Positions 24,414 to 48,604 of a stretch of DNA of 64,000 nt are shown piece after piece. The translations under genes were made by a program, and so were the position numbers. Below the pieces are notes generated by a model that was given only the letters and a program-made list of their open reading frames with translations, was not told the DNA's origin and did not search any database. The DNA lies in NCBI GenBank assembly GCA_965204745.1, contig OZ242010.1, forward strand, positions 1,312,001-1,376,000, written 5' to 3'. The DNA comes from Candidatus Latescibacterota bacterium. Its GTDB lineage: Bacteria; Latescibacterota; UBA2968. Position 1 is the stretch's first letter; each line of letters starts with the position of its first letter.

Positions 24414-25058
24414 ATGTCGTCTATGATTCCCTATTTGGAGTTAGGTCTCGGGCTGCTCGTCGTGTTGCTGTTCATTTTTAATGTCTGCCAGTTTCTCCAG
24501 CGGCGGGCCGCTTTGCACATCGCCGAAGTGCTCTACGTGATGACCCGGCATGTGCGCGAAAAGATCGCCGAAGCCAATGCCGAACCCAAAGACATTGAAA
24601 TCGTGGAAGCCCATCTGTTTTCGATGATCACATCCGCCCGCAGCCTGTTGCGGACCTTGGGCCGCAAGTTGCGCCCAGACCCGGCATTGGATTTGACCGG
24701 CAACGCGCCCAAAATGGACGATGAAAGCCTCGTCCGCCTCGCCGACAATATCCTCTTTTCGGTCAAAGAAGATGCGAAAGATGTCAGTTGGAATGAGGTT
24801 GTCGATAACGCGCTCGACAAATTCCATCAAAGAACGCCGGAACTCGACCGCGAAGGCGCGAAGAAAATCATGACCGTCGTCGCCAAACAACACGAGCCGG
24901 ACAACTCGTACACCTTGCGCGAAGAACCCGCCCGAGAAGAACCGACCATCAAAGCATCCGCAGAACCCGTGCAAGGCTCAAAAAGCAAAACCGCAGAGGA
25001 TAACCGCCGTGAATCCAGAAGCGAGCCCATTCAGACCGGGGCAGCCAGTGCCGATTGA
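24414..25058 (+). CDS. Hypothetical protein with N-terminal membrane anchor
   Basis: AAGGAG RBS, single TM segment, charged low-complexity tail; alternative start 24423. Confidence 0.75.
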   Translation: MSSMIPYLELGLGLLVVLLFIFNVCQFLQRRAALHIAEVLYVMTRHVREKIAEANAEPKDIEIVEAHLFSMITSARSLLRTLGRKLRPDPALDLTGNAPKMDDESLVRLADNILFSVKEDAKDVSWNEVVDNALDKFHQRTPELDREGAKKIMTVVAKQHEPDNSYTLREEPAREEPTIKASAEPVQGSKSKTAEDNRRESRSEPIQTGAASAD

Positions 25059-26223
25059 GTTTTTTGTCGGACGCATCAAAGAGATCGACCGCGTGCGCGG
25101 CATGGCAAAAGCGGCCGCGCAGGGCAGATTCAAAATTGGATTCATCAGCGGAGAGCGGGGCATTGGCAAGAGCTCTTTGGCCTATTTCGCACGCCGCCTT
25201 TCGGCCCGCGAGTGCAATACCGCAGGTTGCCACGTTTTTCTCGGCGGCGTCCAAGCCTTGAACGAGATGGTGCGAAAGACATTTGATCACCTGATCAAAG
25301 AGAGCGTCGACCAGCCGTGGCACCAGCAAGTCAGGGGATTCTTTGGCGATCACATCCGCAAAGTGGGCTTGTTTGGCTTTTCGCTCGAGTTGGATCTCAA
25401 AGAGCGCGATTTATCCATCCTGACCCAAAATTTTGTTCCGTCCATGAGAAATTTTTTGGACGAACTCAAGGGTCAAAAGGACGCGCTCTTTTTGGTTTTG
25501 GATGATATCAACGGGCTTGCGACCTCCGAAGAATTTGCCAACTGGCTCAAAAGCACGGTGGATGAAATCGCCACATCCGACCGAGAAATGCCGCTTTGCA
25601 TGCTCGTCGTTGGGCTTGAAGAGCGACGCCGAGAACTGGTAGAGAGACAACCCTCACTCGCCCGGGTTTTTGAACTGATCGATATCGCCCCATGGTCAGA
25701 CGAGGAAGCCGCAGAGTTTTACCGACGCACGTTCCAATCCGCACGCGCAAAAATAGAACCGGCGGAACTCAATACCCTCGTTCAGTTCACGGGTGGCTTG
25801 CCGGTTTTGGCGCACGAGATCGGCGATGCAGTGTGGCGAACCGCCAAAACCTTGGAAATCAATGCGCGGGAAATTTCCCGAGGCATCGTCAACGCGGCCG
25901 AGGTCATCGGTCACAAATTGTTGGAACCGCAAATTTTCAGCGCGATTCGCAGTGAAAGGTACCGATCAATTTTCCAGAAAATGGCGGATAAGCCCCAAAT
26001 GCGTTTTCGGAGATCGGAACTCGCGGCGCGTCTGACGACCGAAGAGGGAAAAGTGATGGACAATTTCCTCAGACGCATGCGAAACCTGGGCGCCATCGAG
26101 ACAGACGCCGATGTGCGCGGGGGGTACAAATTTCCCAATCACCTCCACGCCCTCTATTTTTGTTTGGAAGCGAAACGCGCAAAATCAAATAGACGCACAG
26201 GCGTAGCCCACAACGCAATGTAG
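25009..26223 (+). CDS. STAND-like/AAA_16 P-loop ATPase with C-terminal winged helix
   Basis: SPFRPG..FFVGR, Walker A GERGIGKS, Walker B LVLDD, TGGLP motif. Confidence 0.85.
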   Translation: MNPEASPFRPGQPVPIEFFVGRIKEIDRVRGMAKAAAQGRFKIGFISGERGIGKSSLAYFARRLSARECNTAGCHVFLGGVQALNEMVRKTFDHLIKESVDQPWHQQVRGFFGDHIRKVGLFGFSLELDLKERDLSILTQNFVPSMRNFLDELKGQKDALFLVLDDINGLATSEEFANWLKSTVDEIATSDREMPLCMLVVGLEERRRELVERQPSLARVFELIDIAPWSDEEAAEFYRRTFQSARAKIEPAELNTLVQFTGGLPVLAHEIGDAVWRTAKTLEINAREISRGIVNAAEVIGHKLLEPQIFSAIRSERYRSIFQKMADKPQMRFRRSELAARLTTEEGKVMDNFLRRMRNLGAIETDADVRGGYKFPNHLHALYFCLEAKRAKSNRRTGVAHNAM

Positions 26224-31648: not shown

Positions 31649-34600
31649 ATGAATAACAACATCAGAGAGCAAATCGGGCATGCCTTGGGCGCGCTGGCGG
31701 ATGGGGATTTTGTGGTGGGGGCGCGAGACTTGCTCGCGGTGCTCGGTTATGAAAGCACGCGCACCTTAGACATCTCGGGCAAGGTGAATGAGTTTATTGC
31801 TCAATTCCCCGCGCCAAACGAGAACACGCAGACCGAGCAAGTGTTCTGCGAGAACGCCCAATCCGTGCGGATTCTCTTTCAAGTGACGGATACGGAAATC
31901 GCGGCGCAGAATACGCTGTTTGACACGAACGATTTTGACACGGGCAATGCGCGGAGTTTCTTGTTCGCCGCCGTCGAACTAAACGGCAAAACCTATTCGC
32001 GCGGGCAATACGCCACATTTACTCGCGAGATCAACAAGCGGATACACACGCCGACCGTGGTGCTGTTCAAGACCGCAACCGATCTGTTGACCCTATCCTT
32101 TGTTCACCGCCGCGAACACAAGCGCGATTCCAACCGCGATGTGCTCGGCCATGTGTCGCTGATCCGAGAGATCGATCCCATCAAGCCGCATCGCGCTCAC
32201 TTAGATATTTTGTCCGATTTATCGCTACCGCAACGGTTGGCGTGGATGGACGCCCACGACAAGCCGCACAATTTTGATGGCCTGTTGGCCGCTTGGCTCA
32301 ACGCGCTGGATACCGAAGCACTGAACAGGCGGTTCTACGGGGATTTGTTCGGCTGGTTTGAATGCGCCATCCGCGAGGCCCAATTCCCGTCTTCTCGTCA
32401 GAAGCGGACGTTGCCACCTGAAGAACATATCATCCGCTTGATCACTCGGTTGATGTTCGTTTGGTTCATCAAGGAAAAAAGATTGATCGCAACGGATCTG
32501 TTCATCGAGGATCAGATCGCCAGGTTGCTGAAAAACTATGACCGCGACGCGGGCGATTCGTATTATCGCGCTGTGTTGCAAAATCTGTTTTTCGCTACGC
32601 TCAACACCGAGAAAAACAGACGCGGTTTTAGCCAGGGGAGCAACGCCACGCACCGCGATTTCTCCCGCTATCGGTACGAGAACGAGATCGCTGACCCCAC
32701 CCAGTTGCTCGACCTGTTCGATCAAACGCCGTTCATCAATGGCGGCCTGTTTGATTGCCTCGACAGCGAGGCGGGCACCCGCGCTGGCGGCTATCGCATC
32801 GACTGTTTCACCGACACCCCCGGTCAACGCCGCGACTATTCTATCCCCAACCGCCTGTTTTTTGACCATGACGGGCTGATTCCCCTGTTCAACCGCTACA
32901 AGTTCACGGTGGAGGAGAACACGCCTGTCGAGCAAGAAGTCGCGCTTGACCCCGAGCTTCTCGGCAAGGTGTTCGAGAATCTCCTCGCCGCGTACAACCC
33001 CGAAACCCGCGACACCGCCCGCAAGCAAACAGGCTCGTACTACACGCCGCGCCCTGTGGTGGATTACATGGTGGATGAGGCATTGGTCGCGGCGTTGGCT
33101 CAAGCGTGTTCGCCAAGCGATGCCGACACAGGGTTTTGGCAAGATCGGTTGCGCTATTTGTTGGACTACGAGGATGCGTTCAACGACGCCCATGAACTGT
33201 TTGAAGAGGATGAAACCGCGGGCATTGTGCGGGCGATTTCCGAGATTAAAGTGCTCGATCCTGCGGTCGGTTCCGGCGCGTTCCCGATGGGCATGTTGCA
33301 CAAGATGGCGATGGCCTTGCGTCGCCTTGACCCGGATAACCAACGCTGGGCCACCTTGCAAAAAGAACGCGCTCGCGCCAAGGCAGACGCGGCGTTTGAT
33401 ACGAAAAATCAGCGAGAACGCGATGCCGAGTTGCTGGCGATCAGCGAGATCTTCGAGCGGTATTCGGGCGACTTTGGGCGCAAGTTGTATCTGATTCAAA
33501 ACAGCATTTTCGGCGTGGATATTCAGCCTATCGCCACGCAGATCGCCAAGTTGCGATTTTTCATCTCCCTCGCCATCGAGCAAGAGCCGGACGAGAACGC
33601 GCCCAACTTCGGCATCAAGCCCTTGCCCAATTTGGAAACGCGCTTTATCGCCGCGGATACGCTGATGCAACTCAAGGCCGCGGATCAACTGGACTTGTTC
33701 CGCCAACAAATTGAAGCCCTGCAAACAAAACTGACGGAAAACCGCGAGCGACATTTTCACGCGACCACGCGCCCGAAAAAACTCGCGTGCAGAGATGCGG
33801 ACAACCAGTTGCGCCGCGCATTGGCAGACGAACTCAACTCTGCCGGCCTTCCCGAAGATGATGCGAAGAAAATCACGCATTGGGATCCCTACGACCAAAA
33901 CGCCAAAGCCGACTGGTTCGATCCCGAATATATGTTCGGCATCGCGGACGGGTTCGACATCGTGATCGGCAATCCGCCGTATGTCGAGTCGCGGAATAGC
34001 TTGTTGTCGGCTGAACAGAAAACATCCTATTGCAACCGAGTTCTTTCCGATTGGGGAGAAACACTCCCGCGTGGCAGTGATCTGCTGATTTACTTTTATG
34101 CCCGTGCCGCAAAACTATTGTCCGAGACCGGCTGTGGTTGTTTTATTACGCAAAACGCTTGGCTCAGTACCGACTATGGGCAGAAATTTCAAACATTCTC
34201 CATTGGAAAATTCTCATTCGAGAAAATCATCGACACTTCCGCCAAATTTTTTTTGGACGCCAAAAGCCAAAATATCAATGCGGTCATCACACTTTTTACC
34301 CCGAAACCGTTGCAGACCATAGAATACGGAATCGCCAACAGCGATATGGCGATGGCCTCAAAAAGACATATTGCCGCCCGACAAACGATGAAGTGGGGGC
34401 ATCTCTTTGCCATGCCGCCATTCTTCGCAGATATATTGACAACAATGGCTACCAACGCCGGCGCGGGCAATACGATCACCTTCGGACAAGGGCTCAATTT
34501 TCCCTTGAAGAAACGCAACGAGTTGGATGCCGATGTGCCCGTCATTGTCAAAGCCGCCCAGTTTGTCGCGGTTTCGGCTGACGACAAAATCGGGAAAGCG

Positions 34601-35104
34601 TTGGTTTCATCTCGCAGAAAAGACAAAATTCCAGCCCTCATTCTGCCGCGTGGAATCGGCAGTAGGCACTATTGCACCTTTAATTTGTGCCGAGCATTTT
34701 CATACAGCCATGTGGAACTCTATCTCCCCGATGACCTTTGGGAATCCGATTTGCACTATTGTCTATGGGCGTACCTGAACTCATCGTTTGTCTGTCTTTT
34801 CCGAGAGATTACGGGGCGGAAAAATCTCGGTGGCGGTATGTTGAAAGCCGAAGCAACGGACATGAAGGCGTTGCCCGTCAATTTTGACTTTGATTTCGCC
34901 GCAGATGCGAAGGAGGTTTTTGACACTGTGACGCACCGAGCACCCTTGCCCATAGCAGAGGAAGTGACCACGCGAGCGCATTTGTCGCTCGATGACATGA
35001 TTGCCGACTACTTCGGCTTTCGAGGACTAACAGAAACAATTAGACAGACCCTCGTCGAACATGTCCATTTCCGGGTCGACAGAGCACGCGCCCAAAGTGT
35101 CTGA
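31649..35104 (+). CDS. Type IIG/Eco57I-like N6-adenine DNA methyltransferase
   Basis: PFINGGLF, DPELLGKVFENLL, GSYYTP, VLDPAVGSGAF, GVDIQ, IGNPPY, C-terminal TRD. Confidence 0.92.
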   Translation: MNNNIREQIGHALGALADGDFVVGARDLLAVLGYESTRTLDISGKVNEFIAQFPAPNENTQTEQVFCENAQSVRILFQVTDTEIAAQNTLFDTNDFDTGNARSFLFAAVELNGKTYSRGQYATFTREINKRIHTPTVVLFKTATDLLTLSFVHRREHKRDSNRDVLGHVSLIREIDPIKPHRAHLDILSDLSLPQRLAWMDAHDKPHNFDGLLAAWLNALDTEALNRRFYGDLFGWFECAIREAQFPSSRQKRTLPPEEHIIRLITRLMFVWFIKEKRLIATDLFIEDQIARLLKNYDRDAGDSYYRAVLQNLFFATLNTEKNRRGFSQGSNATHRDFSRYRYENEIADPTQLLDLFDQTPFINGGLFDCLDSEAGTRAGGYRIDCFTDTPGQRRDYSIPNRLFFDHDGLIPLFNRYKFTVEENTPVEQEVALDPELLGKVFENLLAAYNPETRDTARKQTGSYYTPRPVVDYMVDEALVAALAQACSPSDADTGFWQDRLRYLLDYEDAFNDAHELFEEDETAGIVRAISEIKVLDPAVGSGAFPMGMLHKMAMALRRLDPDNQRWATLQKERARAKADAAFDTKNQRERDAELLAISEIFERYSGDFGRKLYLIQNSIFGVDIQPIATQIAKLRFFISLAIEQEPDENAPNFGIKPLPNLETRFIAADTLMQLKAADQLDLFRQQIEALQTKLTENRERHFHATTRPKKLACRDADNQLRRALADELNSAGLPEDDAKKITHWDPYDQNAKADWFDPEYMFGIADGFDIVIGNPPYVESRNSLLSAEQKTSYCNRVLSDWGETLPRGSDLLIYFYARAAKLLSETGCGCFITQNAWLSTDYGQKFQTFSIGKFSFEKIIDTSAKFFLDAKSQNINAVITLFTPKPLQTIEYGIANSDMAMASKRHIAARQTMKWGHLFAMPPFFADILTTMATNAGAGNTITFGQGLNFPLKKRNELDADVPVIVKAAQFVAVSADDKIGKALVSSRRKDKIPALILPRGIGSRHYCTFNLCRAFSYSHVELYLPDDLWESDLHYCLWAYLNSSFVCLFREITGRKNLGGGMLKAEATDMKALPVNFDFDFAADAKEVFDTVTHRAPLPIAEEVTTRAHLSLDDMIADYFGFRGLTETIRQTLVEHVHFRVDRARAQSV

Positions 35105-35155
35105 ATCGCGGATTAAACGGATTACGCGGATGAACGCGGATTGGGTTGGCAGGTA
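35098..35155. repeat. Palindromic spacer element copy B (left arm only)
   Basis: TGTCTGAATCGCGGATTAAACGGATTACGCGGATGAACGCGGATTGGGTTGGCAGGTAG; supplies the MTase stop codon. Confidence 0.85.
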
Positions 35156-35275
35156 GAGAGAAGAAAGTGAAATGTAGAGGACGCGAGTCGTGCAGAGAAA
35201 GTGAATGAAAGCGATTTTAGGGGCGTGGTCCCCGTGCCCGCCCAAGGATAATGACACGACAGGGAGTTCTGTAGC

Positions 35276-35560
35276 ATGGATATTGGATTTATATGGGACG
35301 AAGACAAATATCGAGAAGTGCAAAGAAAGCATGATGTCAAGTTTTACGAGGTGGTTTTCGCATTTGATGACCCAAAAGGATACGAAACCTTAGATCCAGA
35401 AGGCCATGAAGATCGGTGGATGTGGGTAGGCGCAACAGTTAATGGTCGGGTGTTGGCTGTGATCTGCTCCGAAGAAGATGCCCCACTCTATCGCCTTATC
35501 ACCGCATTTGATGCAGAAGGGAGATTTCTCAATGAGTACTCCAACAGAAGTGGAATTTGA
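35276..35560 (+). CDS. brnT: BrnT family toxin (RelE-fold RNase)
   Basis: FIWDEDK...KHDVKFYEV...FDD...EDRWMWVG...GRVLAVI...RLITA. Confidence 0.85.
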   Translation: MDIGFIWDEDKYREVQRKHDVKFYEVVFAFDDPKGYETLDPEGHEDRWMWVGATVNGRVLAVICSEEDAPLYRLITAFDAEGRFLNEYSNRSGI

Positions 35561-38500
35561 TTATCAAACGTATATGAAGGAAAACACCCCCGAAATTTAT
35601 CGTGGGCCAGAGGCGCGTCGAAAAAGACGAGAGGCCGCCAGAGCGCGGGTTTTTCCAAACAAGACCCACATCGTTCGTGCCGCCGACCTCGAACAATATG
35701 CGAATAGCATAAACAGCCAAACCGTAATACCAGAATTGATCTACTTGCTTGTAAAGCAGTCTATCTCTAATGCCTCTGTGTGCCGCATTCCCTACGGAGA
35801 CGCTGTAAATCAAAGCGGTTGGGATGGGATCGTTGAAGCTGAATCGGCGTTTCTCGAGTTCGTCCCGGATGGCAGATCGTACTGGGAGATCGGCACCGGA
35901 AACGATCCGCAGGCCAAGGCGACCAAAGACTTCAAAAAGAGAACAAGCCAACTCTCCGCCGATGATCGGGCCCAAGGTTCATTTGTTTTTGTGACTCCTC
36001 GTTTCGCTGGGTGGGGAGCACCGGAACAAATAAGGTGGCTGGAACGCAGAAAAGATAAAGGTTGGAAAGATATCCGCATTATCGACGGCGTTAAGCTCGC
36101 CGATTGGTTGCGGGAATTTCCCGCCGTGGGCCAGTGGATGGCAGGAAAGATAGGCTTGTCGAGCAACTCAGGTGTGATTTCTACTCCGAGGGAGCATTGG
36201 GAAAATATCGTCTCTCTGACTAAACTGGGCGATCCCCCCATTCCACCAACACTATTCACTGAAGGGCGTAGCCATGCCTGCAATGCGCTTCAGGCACTAT
36301 TCGAAGGCACCTCGCAAAAGTTGCAGTTGTTGATGTTTGCAGAAGGCGAGCAAGATGTCGCCGATTTCGTTGCAGCTTACATTGAGACTCTTGATGAAGA
36401 TACCGCAAGAGATTACGCCAACCGATGCCTCTATATCGCTGAAGAAGACGCTTGGCGTACGGTTGTAGAAGTTCGGAAATCACATGTTTTGGTCGCTAAT
36501 CCTCGGCTCAATTTGGAGTCGGACGAGCGAGCCGGTCTCCTAACAATCGCCACGCGAAAAGGACACGCGGTCATAGTTCCTCTTTGCGGTGCATTTGCAA
36601 GGGGAAATTCTGAGATCATCAAACTACAAAGTCCATCTCAACTCCAGATAGAAAAGGTTCTGAAAGAGGCAGATTACTCGGATGTACGCTCGCGAGAACT
36701 AGCGGGCATTGGAGGTGATCGACTGTCCGCTTTACTCAGAAACTTACGTGGTTTTGGGGCTGTGCCGCCCTATGCAAAATGGAAAAATGCGAGACTCATT
36801 GCACAGGCAGGGCTCGCCGGAAAGTGGGATGGAAAAAGCGCGGCAGATCGGGAGGCTTTGGAGAGTTTGTTGAAAAAAGAATATGGGGAGTGGATCGAGA
36901 CACTGAGACCTGACGCGCTTCGCTCGGACTCTCCCCTGATTCAACGCGATGAAAAATGGCGATTCGTCGTGCGGGGGGAAGCATGGAGCGCGTTGGGGAA
37001 CAGAATAACGGATGAAGACCTCAATCGGCTCGAAGAGACTGCCGTTGCCGTTCTAGGGGAAAGAGATCCAGAATTTGACTTGCCCAAAGAGAAACGATTC
37101 GCGGCGAGCATTCACGGCAAACAACTGAAACATTCCCGTCTGCTCCGCGAAGGCATGGCAGAAACACTCGCTCTTGTAGGCAGTCGCTCAGAAGCACTTT
37201 CCGAGTGTTCGTTTAGAAAAGCCGAATACGTGGCTGTTCGCACCGTCCAACGACTTTTGGCGAGTGCGAAATGGGACCGCTGGGCGAGTTTGGATTCGCT
37301 GTTGCCACTTCTCGCTGAAGCGGCTCCCAACGAGTTTCTCGCCGCTGTCGAGTCAGCATTGGTGGATTTAGACCAATCTCCATTTCACGAGGTTTTTGCC
37401 CAAGAAAGCAGTGGAGGCATAGGAGGGGGGAACTACATGAGTGGCCTATTGTGGGCTTTGGAAACCCTTGCCTGGCATCCAGATTTCCTTTCTCGGGTAG
37501 CCGTTATCCTATCCGACCTCGCTTCGATTGATCCCGGAGGGAATTGGGCAAATCGGCCGTTTAATTCCCTCTTCGATATCTTCTTACCTTGGCATGTGCA
37601 AACGAGTGCCTCACTCGAGAAACGAAAGGCAGCTATCAAAAACGTGCTCCAAAAGCAACCAGAAGTAGGTTGGCAGTTAATTCTAGGTCTATTACCACAC
37701 AATCATGGTTTCACTATTGGATGCCATCAACCGACTTGGCGGGACTACATTCCGAGAGACTGGAAGGATGATGTCTCGGGGGCAGAGTATTGGGAACAAA
37801 TAACGATTTACACCGAAATGGCAATAGAACTCGCAAAGACGAGCACTGAGAACCTGGGCGAGTTGATCAACTGTATGTCCGATTTACCCAACTCTGCACT
37901 CGATAATCTTCTAGAACACTTAGCCTCAGAAGAGGTCGTAGCTTTGCCCGAGGCTGATCGCGTTTTAATCTGGGAAAGGTTAGATGGTCTAGTGCGCCAA
38001 CACCGAAAATTTGCGGACGCTGAGTGGGCAATGCCGAAAGGCACCATTTCAAGAATTGAGACTGTGGCAAATACCTTGGCACCCGAGACTCCAGTACGGA
38101 AATATTGTTATCTATTTAATAATCAAGGTTTTGATCTTTTTTTTGATGATACGGAAAATTACGAGGAACAAAAAAAACGCCTTGATAAAGCTCAACGGGA
38201 TGCTGTGCAAAAAATTCTCGATACAGGAGGCGTGTCTGCTGTACTGGATTTCGCTCAGAGTGTTGCTATACCTGGCAAAGTTGGAGATGCTTTGAGTAGT
38301 ATCGAAAATGAAGATATTGAGGTGGAAATTCTTCCGTCTCTGCTTAATACTGAAGACGAAACCGCAAAGCGGGTTGTATCTGGATTTGTTCAGGGACGAT
38401 TCCAGAAATCGAGTTGGACTTGGGTTGATCAAGTTCTCGGGAACTCTTGGAACGACACCCAGAAAAATGCGTTCCTAATTTTGCTTCCATTTGAGGATGG

Positions 38501-39467
38501 CGTCTGGAGTCGAGTAGAAGAACACCTCGGCAGAGAGAATGAGAGGCTCTATTGGCAAAAGGTCGCCGTAAATCCGTTTGAACCAGAGCGAGACTTGACT
38601 TTGGCGATTGAGAAGTTGCTCGAATATGAACGGGCTCCCGAAGCTGTCCTTTGTGTTTCTCGCACCGTCAACGACAGAGAAAGATCTAAGGAAGACCTTG
38701 CAATTCGAGCACTTCTCTCGGTGCTGGAGAAGTCTGATGTGGATGTTCAGCTAGATCAATATCAGACTGTCGAGGTGATAAAGTGCCTTCAGAAATCCCC
38801 CTCCGTTGACCGAGAAGTTCTTTGCGAGATTGAGTGGTGCTTCCTATCAATGTTGCGTTTCTCAACCGGATCACCCGTTACACTCGAAAGTCGTCTTGCT
38901 TCGGAGCCTGCCTTCTTCGCTGAGATCGTCGCTTACGCCTTTCGTTCAAAGAACGAGGCTGAAAGCGACGACGAACCGAGCGCAGAAAGGAAGGCGACGG
39001 CCATGAATGCCTACAGACTTCTAAACGAATGGAGAGGGTGCCCCGGCAAACTTTCCGATGACGCCTTTAACAAAAAAATATTCACGAATTGGTTGAATGA
39101 GGCCATGCGAATTACGAAAGAGACCGGTCACAGTGAGATCGCTCAGAATCGGATCGGCCACGTATTGACAAATGCACCCAAAGATCCCAACGGCCTATGG
39201 ATACATCGAGCAGTCGCGTCGGCATTGAACGAAAGAGACGCAGGAAAAATGCGTTCTGGCTTTACGATTGAGCTTTACAATCAGCGAGGCGTCCATGGCT
39301 TCACTGCCGGAAGAGAAGAGCGAGAACTGGCGCAACGAAATCGCGAAAAGGCAGAGGCCCTTGAAACAGCAGGTTATTCGAGATTTGCAACTGCAATGCG
39401 CGAGTTTGCAAGGGGCTATGAACGAGATGCGGAACGTGATGCACAGAGAAGCCCATTCGAAGAGTGA
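35532..39467 (+). CDS. 1311-aa protein: antitoxin-like N-terminus + Mrr-like PD-(D/E)XK nuclease + degenerate STAND NTPase + helical region
   Basis: Overlaps brnT 3' end; GWDGIV...SYWEIGT...KATKDF, FVFVT, IIDGVKLADWL; LFTEGR with no intact Walker A; lower GC than flanks. Confidence 0.75.
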   Translation: MSTPTEVEFDYQTYMKENTPEIYRGPEARRKRREAARARVFPNKTHIVRAADLEQYANSINSQTVIPELIYLLVKQSISNASVCRIPYGDAVNQSGWDGIVEAESAFLEFVPDGRSYWEIGTGNDPQAKATKDFKKRTSQLSADDRAQGSFVFVTPRFAGWGAPEQIRWLERRKDKGWKDIRIIDGVKLADWLREFPAVGQWMAGKIGLSSNSGVISTPREHWENIVSLTKLGDPPIPPTLFTEGRSHACNALQALFEGTSQKLQLLMFAEGEQDVADFVAAYIETLDEDTARDYANRCLYIAEEDAWRTVVEVRKSHVLVANPRLNLESDERAGLLTIATRKGHAVIVPLCGAFARGNSEIIKLQSPSQLQIEKVLKEADYSDVRSRELAGIGGDRLSALLRNLRGFGAVPPYAKWKNARLIAQAGLAGKWDGKSAADREALESLLKKEYGEWIETLRPDALRSDSPLIQRDEKWRFVVRGEAWSALGNRITDEDLNRLEETAVAVLGERDPEFDLPKEKRFAASIHGKQLKHSRLLREGMAETLALVGSRSEALSECSFRKAEYVAVRTVQRLLASAKWDRWASLDSLLPLLAEAAPNEFLAAVESALVDLDQSPFHEVFAQESSGGIGGGNYMSGLLWALETLAWHPDFLSRVAVILSDLASIDPGGNWANRPFNSLFDIFLPWHVQTSASLEKRKAAIKNVLQKQPEVGWQLILGLLPHNHGFTIGCHQPTWRDYIPRDWKDDVSGAEYWEQITIYTEMAIELAKTSTENLGELINCMSDLPNSALDNLLEHLASEEVVALPEADRVLIWERLDGLVRQHRKFADAEWAMPKGTISRIETVANTLAPETPVRKYCYLFNNQGFDLFFDDTENYEEQKKRLDKAQRDAVQKILDTGGVSAVLDFAQSVAIPGKVGDALSSIENEDIEVEILPSLLNTEDETAKRVVSGFVQGRFQKSSWTWVDQVLGNSWNDTQKNAFLILLPFEDGVWSRVEEHLGRENERLYWQKVAVNPFEPERDLTLAIEKLLEYERAPEAVLCVSRTVNDRERSKEDLAIRALLSVLEKSDVDVQLDQYQTVEVIKCLQKSPSVDREVLCEIEWCFLSMLRFSTGSPVTLESRLASEPAFFAEIVAYAFRSKNEAESDDEPSAERKATAMNAYRLLNEWRGCPGKLSDDAFNKKIFTNWLNEAMRITKETGHSEIAQNRIGHVLTNAPKDPNGLWIHRAVASALNERDAGKMRSGFTIELYNQRGVHGFTAGREERELAQRNREKAEALETAGYSRFATAMREFARGYERDAERDAQRSPFEE

Positions 39468-39540: not shown

Positions 39541-40020
39541 TTGGAGATACAGATTTTGAGCGTATATGCAGATACGTCTGTTTTCGGGGGCGCATTCGAT
39601 GAAGAATTTGAGCAAGCCAGTCAGTCCTTTTTCGATATGGTTCGACGGGGGGATTTTAACCTGCTAACATCTGTCGTGGTGCAAGAGGAAATTGAGCATG
39701 CACCTGCGAAAATTGGAGAGCTCTTTGACGAGATGCTCAATTTTGCAGAAATTGTAGAGATTTCTGAAGGTGCTTTGCAACTCCAGCGATCTTATTTAGA
39801 TGCAGAAATCGTAACAAAAAAGTGGGCAACAGACGCGCTCCATGTTGCGTTAGCCACTATCGGGGAGTGTTCTATGATCGTAAGTTGGAATTTCAGACAT
39901 ATCGTGCATTTTTCAAAAATTTCGCTCTACAATGCGGTCAACACCCGTTCTGGCTACTCAAATATTGCTATCCATTCTCCTCAAGAGGTGATTGACTATG
40001 AAGACGAAGAAGACTTTTAA
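39541..40020 (+). CDS. PIN domain protein (VapC-like)
   Basis: VYADTSVFG, EEI, DALHVALA, IVSWNFRH. Confidence 0.88.
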   Translation: MEIQILSVYADTSVFGGAFDEEFEQASQSFFDMVRRGDFNLLTSVVVQEEIEHAPAKIGELFDEMLNFAEIVEISEGALQLQRSYLDAEIVTKKWATDALHVALATIGECSMIVSWNFRHIVHFSKISLYNAVNTRSGYSNIAIHSPQEVIDYEDEEDF

Positions 40021-40177
40021 TTGTGTCGAAATGAAACGGCGTGGTGCGAAAATAATCCACGACCAAATCGCAACTCTGACGCCCAAAGAGCAGCTAATTT
40101 TCTGGCAGAAACGCAACGAGTTGCTAAAAAAGCGTCAAAAAAAAATAAAAACGAAGTATAAGAATTCTGCGGATTAA
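39998..40177 (+). CDS. Small basic protein, probable antitoxin partner of the PIN gene
   Basis: Overlaps PIN stop; KTFNCVEMKRRGA...LTPKEQLIFW pattern. Confidence 0.65.
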   Translation: MKTKKTFNCVEMKRRGAKIIHDQIATLTPKEQLIFWQKRNELLKKRQKKIKTKYKNSAD

Positions 40178-40298
40178 GCGGATTAAGCGGATGAACGCGG
40201 ATTGGGTTGGCAGGTGGCGCAAAGGACATAGCGGGTGTGAAGGGCGGTGGGGTTAATCCGCGCAATCTCCTAATCCGCGAAAATCCGCGATTCAGACA
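40169..40298. repeat. Palindromic spacer element copy C
   Basis: GCGGATTAAGCGGATTAAGCGGATGAACGCGGATTGGGTTGGCAGG ... AATCCGCGATTCAGACA. Confidence 0.85.
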
Positions 40299-40343
40299 AG
40301 GGACTGACCACTGCCGAGGCGGTGTTTCTTGAAAGGAACTTTG

Positions 40344-41167: not shown

Positions 41168-41313
41168 AACACAAACGCCGTAAGTAGGGCAGAGGACGCG
41201 GATTGGGTAGCACAGGTAAAACGAAGGGTGCAGGTGGTACGAAGGACATAGCGGTTGTGGGGAGCGGGGTAATCCGTGAAATCCCAAAATCCGCGTAATC
41301 CGCGATTCAGACA
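41168..41313. repeat. Palindromic spacer element copy D (right arm + internal blocks)
   Basis: GGGCAGAGGACGCGGATTGGG, GAAGGACATAGCGG, AATCCGCGATTCAGACA. Confidence 0.8.
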
Positions 41314-41324
41314 AGAAAAATAAA

Positions 41325-41555
41325 ATGCGGAACATCAAAGCCAAATTTTTTGAAGGCGTGCTCATACCGCAGGAGAAGCTCGACCTCAAAGAAGGTGCGG
41401 ATGTGGTCATAGCCATCACTGCCCCGCCGGATCGCACACTTGAGACGCTGCGAGCAACAGCGGGGGCATGGAAGGGAACACATGATCCAGAAGCATTGAA
41501 ACAGGCCATCTACGCTGGCCGGCGCACTCTTTCTCGGCCTCAACCAAAGTTGTAA
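41325..41555 (+). CDS. DUF104/AF2212-like antitoxin
   Basis: IKAKFFEGVLIPQEKLDLKEGADVVIAI. Confidence 0.8.
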   Translation: MRNIKAKFFEGVLIPQEKLDLKEGADVVIAITAPPDRTLETLRATAGAWKGTHDPEALKQAIYAGRRTLSRPQPKL

Positions 41556-41558
41556 TGT

Positions 41559-41675
41559 ATGCAATATCTCGTAGATACAGATTGGGTCATTGACCACCTA
41601 CACGGGCGCGGGAAACTGTCTGAATCGCGGATTAAACGGATGACGCGGATGAACGCGGATTGGGTTGGCAGGTAG
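41559..41675 (+). pseudogene. vapC-like PIN toxin truncated after ~19 codons by the palindromic element
   Basis: MQYLVDTDWVIDHLHG (first PIN strand) runs straight into TGTCTGAATC at 41617. Confidence 0.75.
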
Positions 41676-41840
41676 GGCAGAGGGCGCAGATGACACAGAC
41701 GCCGTAAGTAGGGCAGAGGACGCGGATTGGGTTGGCAGGTGACGCGAAAGGCATAGCAGATCGGAAGGACACAGCGGGTGTGGATGGGTGGGTTTTTAAT
41801 CCGCGTAATCCCCAAATCCGCGTAATCCGCGATTCAGACA
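41617..41840. repeat. Palindromic spacer element copy E (224 bp)
   Basis: Both 17-bp IR arms present. Confidence 0.85.
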
Positions 41841-41930
41841 AGGGGCGATCACAGCCCACTGACCACTTGATCAGGATAGCGCAGTTGCCTTCTCCCCTCT
41901 CCCTTCTTACGTCTCACCGATGTTTTACTA

Positions 41931-41973: not shown

Positions 41974-42791
41974 GGTTCTGTTGACATTTGGGATATTTTG
42001 AGTTACTCTGTGTGTATGTCAAACCTTATTCTTTCTGCGAACCAGTGGCCTAAAATTCTCGCATTCATCCGCGAATGCCCTCGCGTCTATGTCGGCGAGG
42101 AAGCCGGTTGCAAACGCTTCATTGAAGCGGTTCTGTGGGTGATGCGCTCGGGTGGTCAGTGGCGTCAGTTGCCCGCACAGTACGGGAAGTGGAACACAGT
42201 CTATAAACGCTTTGCTCGCTGGTGCCGGTATGGCGTGTGGGAACGCATGCACCAGCATTTTACGTCTGATCCAGACTTGGCATGTCTGATCATTGACAGC
42301 ACTGTCGTGCGTGCTCATGCCTGTGCAGCGGGTGCCTCAAAAAAAAAGGGGGGCAAGCCGCGCAAGCCCTCGGCAAGAGCCGAGGCGGGTTCAGCACCAA
42401 AATCCATCTCTGCACAGATGCGCGTGGCCTCCCGCTCCGGTTTCGACTCACACCGGGACAAACCCACGATATCACGCAAGCCGAAGCGTTAATCGCTGGG
42501 TATGAGAGCCGATCTGTCATCGCGGATAAGGGCTATGATTCACAAGCGTTTCTGGACGTCCTTTCTCACCATGGACAGGTTGCCGTGATTCCGCCCCGGT
42601 CTTATCGCAAGACCCCGCGTGATTATGATCGCCATCGGTATAAGCAACGCAATTTGATTGAGCGGTTGATTGGAAAAATGAAGCAGTATCGCAGGATATT
42701 TGCTCGCTTTGAGAAACTCAGCACGAGTTATCGAGGCTTTCTCGCTTTTGCGGCCACGCTCATCGCTCTAAAACAAAATGTCAACAGAACC
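41974..42791 (+). mobile_element. IS5 family, IS427-group insertion sequence (818 bp)
   Basis: TA|GGTTCTGTTGACATTT ... AAATGTCAACAGAACC|TA; two-ORF transposase. Confidence 0.93.
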
Positions 42792-46188: not shown

Positions 46189-46632
46189 ATGAGTCTTGTA
46201 CTGACACAGCGGGAAGCCGATTCCCTTTTGAACCGCGACAAGCATTACATGGGAAACGAACAATTTTCCTTTCCCGGTTTGGGCGGCGCGTTGCGAATCC
46301 CGTTGTATTCCAATGATCGCCGCGAGGAATTTAGCTTGGACATCACCCGAGGGCGCATCGAACTGCGAAAGAATACGTTCCAAACACGGGCGCGACGAGT
46401 CGCGATTTTGGCGCGTGTCGATATTGGGGGTCCACCGCACCGCAATCCAGATGGGAGAGAAATTCCCTGCCCACACCTACATATTTATCGGGAGGGATAT
46501 GGTGACAAATGGGCGATACCTTTGCCTGATAACTTCAAAAATTATCGGGATGCGTGGCAGACCTTAATGGACTTCATGGATTATTGCCATGTGGTCACTC
46601 GACCCCCCATTCAGCCGGAGTTGTTCCCATGA
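46189..46632 (+). CDS. DUF6978-like protein
   Basis: LARVDIGGPPHRNPDG...PHLHIYREGYGDKWA. Confidence 0.7.
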   Translation: MSLVLTQREADSLLNRDKHYMGNEQFSFPGLGGALRIPLYSNDRREEFSLDITRGRIELRKNTFQTRARRVAILARVDIGGPPHRNPDGREIPCPHLHIYREGYGDKWAIPLPDNFKNYRDAWQTLMDFMDYCHVVTRPPIQPELFP

Positions 46633-47399
46633 TGATTCGAGAAATCGCTAAACTGGTCAATGAGTACACGCGCTGGTTGGGGGATAAAACCATTTTTAAG
46701 GAGATCGATACGGCTTGGGTCGAGATCACGACGCCGTATCTGGATCGGCATAACGACTGCTTGCAGATCTATGCGTGCAGGGAAGGCAATGGATTCGTTC
46801 TGACAGATGATGGTTATATCATCAATGATCTCATCAACTCGGGTTGCCCTCTCGATACGCCGAAACGTCGCGCATTGTTAAAGACAACGCTGGCGGGATT
46901 TGGCGTGCAGATGGCGGGAGATCAATTGACTGTCCACACCACGCGAGAAAATTTTTCGATAAAAAAACACAATATCATCCAAGCCATGCTATCGGTAAAC
47001 GACCTTTTCTTTTCAGCTTCTCCTTATGTCGCCAGTCTCTTTTTGGAAGATGTAACGAACTGGTTGGAGTCGTCGGATATTCGTTATACGCCGCATATCA
47101 AGTTCACGGGCAAGAGTGGTTACGATCACATGTTTAATTTTGTGATCCCCAAGTCTCGCAGCCAGCCCGAGCGCATTGTGCAAGCCGTGGCAAATCCTCA
47201 AAAAAATTCAGCGGAAGCACTCGTGTTCAAATGGCTGGATACCAGAGAAATGAGGTCGCCCGATGCCATGCTGTTTGCCTTTCTAAACGATAGCAATCTC
47301 AAAGTCTCGCAATCGGCGATTGGGGCGTTGGAAAATTACGATCTTAAACCCGTGCTTTGGTCACGACGAGAAGAATCCAGGGAGTTATTAGCGGCATGA
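46629..47399 (+). CDS. DUF1828/DUF1829 domain protein (C-terminal restriction-endonuclease-like fold)
   Basis: ITTPYLDRHNDCLQIY, LTDDG, GKSGYDHMFNFVIP; ATGA-coupled. Confidence 0.75.
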   Translation: MMIREIAKLVNEYTRWLGDKTIFKEIDTAWVEITTPYLDRHNDCLQIYACREGNGFVLTDDGYIINDLINSGCPLDTPKRRALLKTTLAGFGVQMAGDQLTVHTTRENFSIKKHNIIQAMLSVNDLFFSASPYVASLFLEDVTNWLESSDIRYTPHIKFTGKSGYDHMFNFVIPKSRSQPERIVQAVANPQKNSAEALVFKWLDTREMRSPDAMLFAFLNDSNLKVSQSAIGALENYDLKPVLWSRREESRELLAA

Positions 47400-48604
47400 A
47401 TCGACTTGATGTTTTTTCTCAAATCGCCCTCGGCGAAGACAGCACTCGGCAGTTCAAGGTCGATGTACGCAACAGTACGTCGCTGGCCGCAGAGATGGCG
47501 GCGTTTGCCAATTCCAAGGGCGGCACAATTTTTATCGGCGTGGCAGATGACGGGACTGCACCGGGGCTTGGTAGCGAGGATGTCTCTCGCATCAACCAAC
47601 TCATCGGCAACGCCGCGAGTCAATTAGTGCGTAGCCCTTTGACGGTACAGACGGAAAATGTGGCACTAAAAAATGGTCGCCTCGTGATTGTGCTGACCGT
47701 GCCCAATGGGATTGACAAACCCTATTTCGACAAAAACGGCGTGATTTGGCTGAAGACCGGCTCGGACAAGCGGCGGGTGAACGCCAAGGAAGAACTGCGG
47801 CGGTTGTTCCAATTTTCTGCACAGTTCTACGCCGATGAATTACCCACCAAAGCGGGTATTGACAAACTGGACAAATTGCGCTTTCGCGATTTTCTGCGCG
47901 ATGTCTATCATTGGGAATATCCAGATTCCGCCGCAGAAATGACCCGCCTGCTCCAGAATATGAATCTCGCCACCGAGGACGGACAGTTGAACTTGGCGGG
48001 CGTACTGCTGTTCGCCGAACAGCCAGCGTGGATCGCGCCGCAGTTTGTCGTAAAGGCCATCCGCTATCCCGGCAACGAGATTCACGCGACAGACTACGTC
48101 GATACCGAGGTTTTCGACGGGCCATTGCCCAAGAGCTTTGACGATGCCTTGGCTTTTGTGATGCGAAACCTGCACAAAGTACAGGCCGGACGCGGGGTCA
48201 ATGCGCCGGGCTTGCCGGAAATCCCGCCAAGCGCGTTTGAGGAGTTGCTGGTCAACGCGCTGGTGCATCGAGACTATTTGGTAAGCGCGCCAATTCGCCT
48301 GTTCATTTTTGACAACCGCATCGAGATCATCAGCCCTGGGCATTTGCCCAACAACTTGACCGTGGAGAAAATTCGCACCGGCAATTCCAATATTCGCAAC
48401 CCGATTCTCATTTCTTATGTGGCGAAGGGGTTGTTGCCCTATCACGGCCTCGGTTCCGGCATCAAGCGCGCCCTAGACGTATGGCCGCAGATCGATTTTT
48501 GCGATGATCGCGAGGGCTGTTTGTTCACCGCAACCGTACACCGCAAGCCCGTAGAAAAGTTGAGATTGGCGGATGTTTCTCCCCGAGGTGTGGCAAAAAT
48601 TTGA
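47396..48604 (+). CDS. Schlafen/AlbA_2 domain + HATPase_c_4 protein
   Basis: GEDSTRQFK, AFANSKGGTIFIGVADDG, ELLVNALVHRDY, IEIISPG, RNP, GSGI. Confidence 0.88.
   Translation: MNRLDVFSQIALGEDSTRQFKVDVRNSTSLAAEMAAFANSKGGTIFIGVADDGTAPGLGSEDVSRINQLIGNAASQLVRSPLTVQTENVALKNGRLVIVLTVPNGIDKPYFDKNGVIWLKTGSDKRRVNAKEELRRLFQFSAQFYADELPTKAGIDKLDKLRFRDFLRDVYHWEYPDSAAEMTRLLQNMNLATEDGQLNLAGVLLFAEQPAWIAPQFVVKAIRYPGNEIHATDYVDTEVFDGPLPKSFDDALAFVMRNLHKVQAGRGVNAPGLPEIPPSAFEELLVNALVHRDYLVSAPIRLFIFDNRIEIISPGHLPNNLTVEKIRTGNSNIRNPILISYVAKGLLPYHGLGSGIKRALDVWPQIDFCDDREGCLFTATVHRKPVEKLRLADVSPRGVAKI

Follow-up and report, generated by a model that had tools for sequence, protein, structure and literature searches.

The locus described here lies in a stretch of 64,000 nucleotides (nt) from the genome of a Candidatus Latescibacterota bacterium (assembly GCA_965204745.1, contig OZ242010.1, positions 1,312,001 to 1,376,000), which as a whole we call the window, and consists of two overlapping genes on its forward strand. 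The first, brnT (positions 35276 to 35560), codes for a 94-amino-acid (aa) toxin assigned by Pfam PF04365 to the BrnT family of the RelE/ParE superfamily. The second (35532 to 39467), delimited by end-to-end alignment to family members, is a chimeric open reading frame (ORF) of 1,311 codons plus stop, which by homology begins as a BrnA antitoxin and continues as a large protein built like the Avs defense proteins. That brnT is overlapped at its 3' end by an ORF starting at 35532 had been reported in an initial annotation of this DNA, and both the ORFs and the Pfam match agree with it. The overlap is 29 nt, the ATG of the partner lying inside brnT, and the same offset (−29) is found in relatives where the ORF call starts at the equivalent ATG; elsewhere this ATG is in register. 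A Shine-Dalgarno-like AAGGGAG, read from the sequence at 35517 to 35523 of the forward strand, lies 8 nt before the partner ATG, within the 3' end of brnT, and would act as its ribosome site. Overlap and internal Shine-Dalgarno together suggest that translational coupling sets the ratio of toxin to partner. The ATG at 35532 is also the start in six close homologues (P0001 to P0006, 85 to 97% identical) and in bona fide BrnA proteins.

A single open frame extends from 35478 to 39467, and homologues cover 97% of the partner ORF (forms of ~1,270 aa) or all of it (P0001 to P0006, 100%). Logan contigs from four runs belonging to four studies, all of the sponge-metagenome type, span 35640 to 35664 with no gaps (X1 record 6, 35511 to 36143; X2 record 21, 35495 to 35733; X6 record 30, 35527 to 35885; X10 record 11, 35341 to 35733; forward strand), and metagenome contigs list no insertions or deletions between 35170 and 35905. 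A stop or frameshift near 35660, which had been singled out as the thing to look for, does not occur in the contigs that cross 35640 to 35664. The fused N terminus is also present in the homologue clusters P0001 to P0006, in a metagenome-assembled genome (MAG) labeled Latescibacteria (L011) and in another genome of the sample (G082, locus L030). Because gap-free contigs come from four studies and the same N terminus recurs in P0001 to P0006 and in the L011 MAG, the fused frame is real and not an assembly artifact. GC content along the partner ORF is 0.43 to 0.54; in the type IIG restriction-modification (R-M) gene upstream, which the small island holding the locus adjoins, it is 0.54 to 0.58 over most of the gene (31649 to 33749) and 0.47 to 0.52 in the last 1.3 kb.

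The toxin matched the PF04365 BrnT_toxin profile over residues 7 to 80 (E value of 1.3e-13, 51.4 bits with a cut-off of 34.5), and a profile built from 15 BrnT orthologues matched PDB entry 7vd7_A, annotated as “toxin” (E value of 1.8e-7). By these matches BrnT is a member of the BrnT toxin family, from which RNase activity and growth inhibition are presumed. Ratios of nonsynonymous to synonymous substitution rates (dN/dS) of 0.11 to 0.42 over codons 1 to 84, in 28 pairwise comparisons, indicate that the gene is under purifying selection. The clade of BrnT found in the window reads RLITAFDAEG where the two canonical BrnT copies of the same genome (L001 and L002) have RIISARRA(T/S)..ER.., and scores 51 bits against the Pfam profile versus 85 to 94 bits for the canonical copies.

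The antitoxin-derived N terminus

The initial annotation had proposed a BrnA-type N terminus for the partner. A phmmer search of residues 1 to 40 against 1.84e9 representatives gave 24 matches at an E value of ≤1e-3, nearly all with the peptide at the N terminus. Among them was a 109-aa protein, P0125 (E value of 1.1e-6), that itself carries a Pfam BrnA_antitoxin domain downstream of the peptide (E value of 4e-14). The proposal holds in the light of this match and of the metagenome partners described below, with one correction, that the BrnA homology ends at about residues 37 to 40 (35642 to 35651 in the window) and not at 45; from residue 43 onward the sequence is that of the large family. 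We therefore delimit the peptide, from the phmmer result and the ribbon-helix-helix (RHH) context of metagenome partners, as residues 1 to 37 (35532 to 35642, forward strand), presumably the module that neutralizes BrnT. Its invariant core is E8 F9 D10, G25 and R32.

The remainder of BrnA is missing, as had been noted at first sight. Residues 1 to 100 or 1 to 300 of the partner gave no PF14384 (BrnA) match even at an E value of ≤10, and scans with Pfam, NCBIfam and profiles found neither an RHH nor a helix-turn-helix (HTH) domain anywhere in the protein. No RHH remnant was found 3' of its stop codon either; only 73 nt separate the stop from the next gene, and the right flank shares nothing but REP-like repeats with the paralogous cassette described below. 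Because the RHH tail is missing, the partner is on sequence grounds not a BrnA member.

To establish what such partners normally look like, we used a metagenome sample of 45 loci with a BrnT of the subfamily found in the window (54 to 74% identical), in 40 of which the partner could be scored. The peptide is followed by the RHH motif LINxALRxWL in 31 of the 40, 22 of which match Pfam BrnA at an E value of ≤1e-3. The others were of the FRG type (two; L080 is FRG plus TPR by Pfam and L083 runs off its contig), TPR (two), TIR-like (one), peptide only or tandem peptide (three) and one cut by the contig end. By these counts peptide plus RHH is the normal state of the partner in this BrnT subfamily. 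Read against it, residues 1 to 37 come from a BrnA antitoxin, of which they form the N-terminal half and whose RHH tail has been replaced, and the breakpoint falls exactly where the RHH strand would start.

The BrnT/BrnA type II toxin-antitoxin (TA) prototype is that of Brucella abortus (Heaton et al. 2012, as cited in PMC11980606), where the RHH is the DNA-binding half of BrnA; in the gene fusions of BrnT with BrnA known so far, toxin and antitoxin are linked and an RHH or HTH is retained, as far as the accessible text of PMC11980606 goes. Its main text makes no mention of TPR, STAND or Avs. The window locus resembles this prototype in having the toxin gene first, a partner ORF overlapping its 3' end and a BrnA-type N-terminal segment, but the C-terminal RHH of BrnA is replaced here by 1,270 aa of unrelated protein. 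It differs in the same way from canonical type II TA systems, in which the antitoxin binds DNA and autoregulates, since the partner has neither RHH nor HTH.

Within the phylum the replacement is the rule. In a sample of 168 genomes we found 17 loci with a BrnT at an E value of ≤1e-10, 15 of them at an identity of at least 58%. All 15 of the latter have an overlapping partner that bears the peptide, and none of these partners has an RHH. By the printed N-terminal sequence they were Avs-like (two), of the FRG type (six), TPR (six) or an AbiLi/PDC-M38A-like (AAA_15) ATPase (one); Pfam and PADLOC scans covered the paralog and relatives of these partners, and the TPRs of the FRG type were seen where scanned. 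In those scans PADLOC identified the FRG part as PDC-S15 (E value of 2e-31), the ATPase as PDC-M38A/AbiLi (E value of 1.5e-79) and its DUF3226 neighbor as PDC-M38B, and found a TIR in P0137.

A paralogous cassette lies 203 kb away in the same genome (G000:C1:1549911-1552663; L003/L045/L076). A block of 550 bp, taking in a REP-like element, brnT and the first 37 codons of the partner, is 91% identical to window positions 35095 to 35642. The paralogous brnT (1550094 to 1550378) encodes a protein 84% identical to that of the window, and its partner (1550350 to 1552611, 753 aa) has the same N-terminal peptide followed by an FRG domain (E value of 2.3e-14) and 11 TPRs, the whole cassette being flanked by identical REP-like elements. 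To judge from these loci, the intact members of the window's brnT clade in the phylum all keep the peptide in their partners, and what varies is the tail.

Codons 11 to 37 of the peptide gave dN/dS values of 0.04 to 0.08 within the group of the window (against the paralog and L030), with nine synonymous and three nonsynonymous changes versus the paralog, and 0.12 to 0.62 in a second group. By these ratios the peptide is under purifying selection. It also looks autonomous, because peptide-only and double-peptide partners occur: partners of 71 aa consisting of the peptide only sit beside intact 94-aa brnT genes in L085 and L087, and two tandem BrnA N-peptides without RHH make up the small ORFs P0122, P0142 and L090:911-1258.

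Architecture of the large protein

Residues 43 onward are a complete member of a widespread and strongly conserved family of ~1,270-aa proteins, with 747 matches at an E value of ≤1e-3 among 8,000 scored candidates, with identities of 60 to 70% across MAGs labeled Gemmatimonadota, Verrucomicrobiota and Idiomarina. The 40 best homologues differ at the N terminus: 28 start with M(D/E)HT, at a position equivalent to residue ~43 in the window, 6 have the leader found in the window, 4 have a shorter leader beginning with MNNQ and 2 have other short beginnings. Because 28 of 40 start at M(D/E)HT, the leader is by homology an add-on to the large family. The usual start of the family, MDHTHIV, reads PNKTHIV in the window protein; the start methionine being absent, translation of the protein has to include the peptide.

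The whole 1,311-aa protein matched no family of Pfam or NCBIfam, and four pieces of it searched against Pfam at an E value of ≤10 gave only a chance-level match to VIGSSK. A family profile had no match among PDB sequences at an E value of ≤1, and the nearest ESM Atlas clusters carry only “hypothetical protein” entries. In PADLOC the window protein had a single weak but collinear match, to PD-Lambda-4_A (E value of 0.0029), and weak matches to the same model (E values of 0.003 to 0.009) appeared in 5 of 13 family members scanned, always collinear; no Avs model matched at an E value of ≤0.01.

AlphaFold2 (AF2) models from 44-row alignments reached a mean pLDDT of 85.2 for residues 1 to 420 and of 87.1 for residues 401 to 1311. 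Foldseek placed Avs4 bound to a phage portal first among PDB matches of the N-terminal model (8dgf_A, E value of 1.1e-6), followed by AAA+ proteins and Avs3, and in VIA chain 8dgf_B of Avs4 (residues 2 to 418) matched across residues 46 to 420 with a Z score of 8.2. These models and matches, with those of the solenoid below, bear out the initial annotation of an Mrr-like nuclease, a STAND-like domain with a lost P-loop and a helical remainder, and the motifs on which it had relied (GWDG, YWEIG, FVFVT, IIDGVKL and LFTEGR) are all present in the translation.

Residues 45 to 210 (35664 to 36161, forward strand) are predicted by the AF2 model and VIA to form a PD-(D/E)xK-fold domain of the Mrr/MspJI type. 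Nuclease matches in VIA were MspJI (4f0p_B, Z score of 8.5, root mean square deviation of 3.7, 134 residues aligned), EcoT38I (Z score of 8.3) and the N-terminal domain of the type ISP enzyme LlaBIII (Z score of 8.0). Residues G96, D98, G99, W118 and E119 are invariant in the family, and K129, on the next helix, is nearly so. The lysine position of the (D/E/Q)xK motif is a glycine, YWEIG aligning with FQLKAG of the Avs8-like family (E-x-G versus Q-x-K), and K129 might take the place of the canonical nuclease lysine. Residues 212 to 417 (36165 to 36782, forward strand) correspond by VIA and Foldseek to an AAA+/STAND-like domain lacking Walker A (VIA matches to ClpA D1, RFC and Cdc6/Orc1, with Z scores of 8.8, 8.4 and 8.1). 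At the Walker A site the window protein has LLMFAEGEQDVADFV where the Avs8-like family has VVGLSGVGKSRL, and GxxxxGK[ST] is absent from the whole family, whose consensus is LFAESPQDVADFV versus GLSGVGKSR in the Avs8-like alignment.

The remaining ~890 aa (36783 to 39464, forward strand) are almost all helical in the AF2 model and form an alpha-helical solenoid, a presumed sensor or scaffold. Foldseek matched the model of residues 401 to 1311 to HEAT/ARM solenoids (TBC-D, Kap95, CAND1 and FANCI; E values of ~1e-4); no Avs sensor was among the solenoid matches listed (46 rows, ranks to 50), which does not show that the folds differ. A paralog in the same genome (L125:1186-4434, G000:C1:3335260-3338508; 1,082 aa) joins a Schlafen AlbA_2 domain (E value of 2.3e-13) directly to a solenoid 40% identical to window residues ~359 to 1301; the nuclease fold is missing from it, as is most if not all of the AAA+-like domain. 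On this comparison the solenoid is a portable module common to different heads.

A distant branch of the family, seen in Azospirillum halopraeferens (L018:5683-9759), has an N-terminal HTH that PADLOC matches to the R-M model “Control_protein” (E value of 2.3e-13); no toxin ORF was seen upstream of it. Clusters of 1,333 to 1,372 aa in the ESM Atlas, also N-terminal-HTH branches, are named automatically “HigA family antitoxin.” By the sequences compared, the N terminus of the family is a place where antitoxin-type or regulator-type modules are gained repeatedly.

The closest known systems for this part of the protein are Avs4 (PDB 8dgf) and Avs8, with which it shares the order of parts, from a nuclease fold of the Mrr type at the N terminus through an AAA+/STAND-like domain in the middle to long C-terminal helical repeats; its length of ~1,270 aa is also near that of PD-Lambda-4_A (a profile of 1,283 positions). 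In the part of the preprint available (bioRxiv 10.64898/2026.01.04.697583), PD-lambda-4 is equated with Avs8, which senses capsids, and KpAvs8 has degenerate Walker motifs; the same text describes no TA-derived N-terminal peptide on any Avs (the word “antitoxin” has no occurrences). An hhalign comparison of the window family with a 29-row Avs8-like alignment was collinear over 835 columns but weak (probability of 11.9%, E value of 0.0025), and against a single Avs8-like sequence the probability was 1% (E value of 0.05). A true PD-Lambda-4_A homologue does exist in the phylum (L046:1411-5409, E value of 2.5e-79), and keeps GLSGVGKSR, VVVVDDCD and Q-x-K. Unlike Avs4 and Avs8, the window family has no Walker A, has E-x-G for Q-x-K, and its solenoid matches HEAT/ARM proteins. 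As far as alignments and models can tell, the window protein is thus built like BrnA and Avs both and is not a demonstrable Avs member. The PD-Lambda-4_A/Avs8-like family itself (P0145 to P0264) comprised 550 matches at an E value of ≤1e-10, most of 1,340 to 1,390 aa with an N-terminal PF15731/HTH_31. Several are named “MqsA family antitoxin” in their source, a misleading name for a STAND protein of >1,300 aa in which only the HTH half of MqsA is present. We considered this N terminus as a toxin-binding antitoxin half and rejected it, since the sequences show the HTH half only.

Junction, repeats and loss of brnT

The two parts of the chimera meet at 35628 to 35664 (forward strand), a recombination junction recognized by homology breakpoints and metagenome contigs. 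Homology to the paralogous cassette stops at ~35642 and homology to a leader-bearing relative (L010) starts at ~35628, and metagenome contigs diverge at 35638, where they continue as the FRG type, and at 35664, where another leader precedes. As history, then, the in-frame insertion that the initial annotation had offered as its alternative was right, in the form of an in-frame replacement, the end of homology to the paralog at ~35642 marking it.

A REP-like dispersed repeat at 35095 to 35157 (unstranded), with many copies in the genome and contained in the 550-bp paralog block, forms the left edge of the cassette. A copy of these 63 nt with 100% identity directly follows the partner gene of the paralog (C1:1552601-1552663), and the repeat (core AATCGCGGATTAAACGGATTACGCGGAT) recurs in the window at 40160 to 40300, 41170 to 41320 and 41600 to 41850 and at hundreds of sites in the genome. 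It also gives rise to spurious minus-strand ORFs with the string IRVIRLIRDSD. In runs X1 and X6 there is a cassette with brnT deleted, in which the REP-like element at 35143 is joined to 35495, leaving the last ~65 nt of brnT and skipping 349 to 351 nt, a form that coexists in samples of this kind.

A search of the phylum for the peptide found it at 27 loci in 24 genomes, brnT being kept at 14 and lacking at 13 (tblastn, E value of ≤1e-2). Restriction enzymes account for five of the 13 (four of type II, 313 aa, and one of type IIG), and the others are two truncated FRG genes and six short ORFs. The restriction enzymes of L022:6001-6942 and L024:6001-6942 (also L055, L057, L058 and L062) are REase_II proteins (PADLOC E value of 8.8e-101) with the BrnA peptide as an in-frame leader of 53 aa, followed by an N6_N4 methyltransferase; the profile covers residues 55 to 310 of the L022-type protein, in which the own start is kept. 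Near-identical copies in MAGs labeled Latescibacterota and Gemmatimonadetes suggest recent transfer between phyla. The MNNQ leader of Limisphaerales-type relatives shows DNA-level homology to the peptide's 3' half, and these relatives therefore appear to descend from the fusion, with brnT lost later. In a MAG labeled Limisphaerales (L010:5926-9822), a large gene 79% identical to that of the window is in three ORFs (149, 723 and 536 aa) without brnT, next to a type IIG homologue that is also fragmented, the adjacency of type IIG and large gene being the same as in the window. From the joints compared, the region is evidently a recombination hotspot in which leader scars persist.

A candidate toxin-gating system and its alternatives

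The reading that we put first, and to which we give as much credence as doubt, is that the peptide neutralizes BrnT and that the state of the large protein gates its release. BrnT would be bound and neutralized by the peptide, and so held on the N terminus of the Avs-like protein, until a change of state in the latter frees or activates it, RNA is cut and the infected cell is arrested. Such a change might come about when the solenoid binds a phage protein, with oligomerization, or alternatively when the large protein is lost because the phage shuts off host expression. Without an RHH, the operon would in addition no longer regulate its own transcription in the usual way.

Several observations weigh against this gating model. 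We infer binding and neutralization from domain logic, which makes the N-terminal half of BrnA the toxin-binding half; a sequence search of the PDB with P0125 had no matches and so turned up no solved structure of a BrnA. The large family does not need BrnT, given that 28 of its 40 best homologues start at M(D/E)HT and only 6 carry the peptide. VIA Z scores of ~8 are middling by the tool's own note, and with neither Walker A nor the nuclease lysine, Avs-like signaling is no more than a possibility. Evidence against a strict dependence on BrnT also comes from the 13 of 27 peptide loci that lack the toxin gene, in 5 of which the peptide is fused in frame to R-M enzymes whose own start is retained (a type IIG enzyme in L067) and looks like a neutral leader scar. 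The MNNQ forms appear to have lost brnT and half of the peptide after the fusion, and yet are intact at 1,272 to 1,277 aa. A complex prediction of BrnT (15-row alignment) with residues 1 to 45 (22-row alignment) scored 0.16 with a mark of 0.32, and counts neither for nor against binding.

The strongest competitor, possible although we think it distinctly less probable, is that the fusion is a scar of cassette exchange, the brnT-brnA locus being a recombination hotspot within the defense islands of these REP-rich genomes and incoming defense genes having replaced the 3' part of brnA so that the retained 5' piece merely supplies a ribosome site and a start. The peptide might then still keep BrnT harmless, and large protein and toxin would be mechanistically unlinked. 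Much of the junction data fits such a history: breakpoints cluster at 35628 to 35664, with both alternative joinings within the same metagenomes; REP-like elements flank the cassettes; a joint with brnT deleted occurs in two runs; the gene immediately upstream is of type IIG in the window, L010, L022, L024 and L026; brnT is missing from almost half of the peptide loci, among them the leaders on R-M enzymes with their own starts and six short remnant ORFs; and most members of the large family have no leader. What a scar would not predict is that the partners of intact brnT genes in the phylum are never short remnants (0 of 15) and always carry the peptide plus a sizeable domain, that the dN/dS of the peptide (0.04 to 0.3) equals or falls below that of the toxin, that the window gene has no start codon of its own, which makes the fusion obligatory, and that partners are limited to sensor and defense types and are not random genes. 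Should the scar be all there is, the locus would still document a defined breakpoint and a hotspot of cassette exchange in defense islands of sponge-associated bacteria.

A function as an addiction or guard module, in which the toxin penalizes loss or silencing of the defense gene or island and has no role in phage sensing, seems improbable to us. TA pairs classically stabilize DNA, in all 15 intact loci the antitoxin determinant is built into defense genes that are costly, and other TA-like genes (PIN_3 and AF2212-like) are present in the island. Nevertheless, a nonsense mutation or frameshift after codon ~40 would kill the defense protein and spare the peptide, so that protection would be weak; partners consisting only of the peptide exist beside intact brnT (L085 and L087), and brnT is often lost. 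A mis-assembly or decaying pseudogene, which might be suspected from the single-contig MAG-like assembly, the broken L010 relative and a 1-nt deletion at 35906 in one X10 contig (depth of 5.2), is refuted as far as sequence data allow by the four independent contigs that cross the junction, the 1,311 open codons aligned end to end with homologues 60 to 97% identical, and the purifying selection on the peptide.

In the boldest reading, which we regard as speculative and rate a little below the scar, the ~37-residue peptide would be a portable toxin-docking tag by which Avs-like, FRG/PDC-S15-TPR, TPR, AbiL/AriA-like ATPase and TIR proteins hold BrnT, an RNase common to them all, inactive at their N termini and fire it when triggered. 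This would amount to a heterotypic, TA-derived adaptor wiring a common executioner to interchangeable sensors, similar to the adaptor domains of eukaryotic innate immunity. For the question of how TA modules come to be coupled to phage sensing, the locus offers a natural and repeated domain-swap experiment: one toxin and a ~37-aa antitoxin piece are constant, and the DNA-binding tail has been exchanged for at least five kinds of defense or sensor modules. Neutralization of BrnT by a minimal peptide, gating of a separate toxin by an Avs-like protein, and an immune-sensor role for a family without P-loop and nuclease lysine are candidate properties that can now be tested.

Some known systems offer parallels. 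The fused TA CapRel-SJ46 and toxin-antitoxin-chaperone systems such as CmdTAC tie an antitoxin element to phage perception, either by physical attachment to the perceiving module or by dependence on it, so that the toxin is set free upon infection. The likeness to the window locus is in concept only, as toxin family, antitoxin element and sensor all differ; the candidate sensor here is an Avs-like protein of >1,200 aa, a polypeptide separate from the toxin. In PARIS, the ATPase scaffold AriA sequesters the small toxic effector AriB and releases it on sensing. One of the peptide partners (L031/L066) is an AriA/AbiLi-like ATPase; BrnT and AriB have no homology, and here the tethering peptide is TA derived. 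Effector-associated domains (EADs) are short N-terminal adaptors by which large NTPase-type or sensor proteins recruit in trans an effector encoded next to them, and a TA toxin (DUF397) has been recruited as coeffector in NTP-dependent conflict systems, according to the accessible text of Kaur et al. 2020 (PMC7159879). As described there, EAD pairing is homotypic, unlike that in the window, which would be heterotypic (toxin plus antitoxin peptide) and BrnTA derived. In the literature available on BrnT/BrnA, Avs/STAND and effector-associated adaptors we found no BrnA N-peptide grafted onto defense proteins, although Table S2 of PMC11980606 and the supplements of the Avs preprint could list such fusions.

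Directly downstream of the locus, positions 39541 to 40177 encode a PIN_3 protein of 159 aa and, overlapping it, a basic ORF of 61 aa, and an AF2212-like small protein is encoded at 41325 to 41555; these are probably further TA pairs. A fragment of an IS4/5-type transposase (DUF4096, 41998 to 42492) immediately precedes efp. Farther away, the window contains other defense-like genes, encoding an AAA_16/nSTAND1 ATPase of 404 aa (25009 to 26223) and, at 46554 to 48604, a DUF1828/DUF1829 protein and, after it, one that combines Schlafen AlbA_2 with HATPase_c_4.

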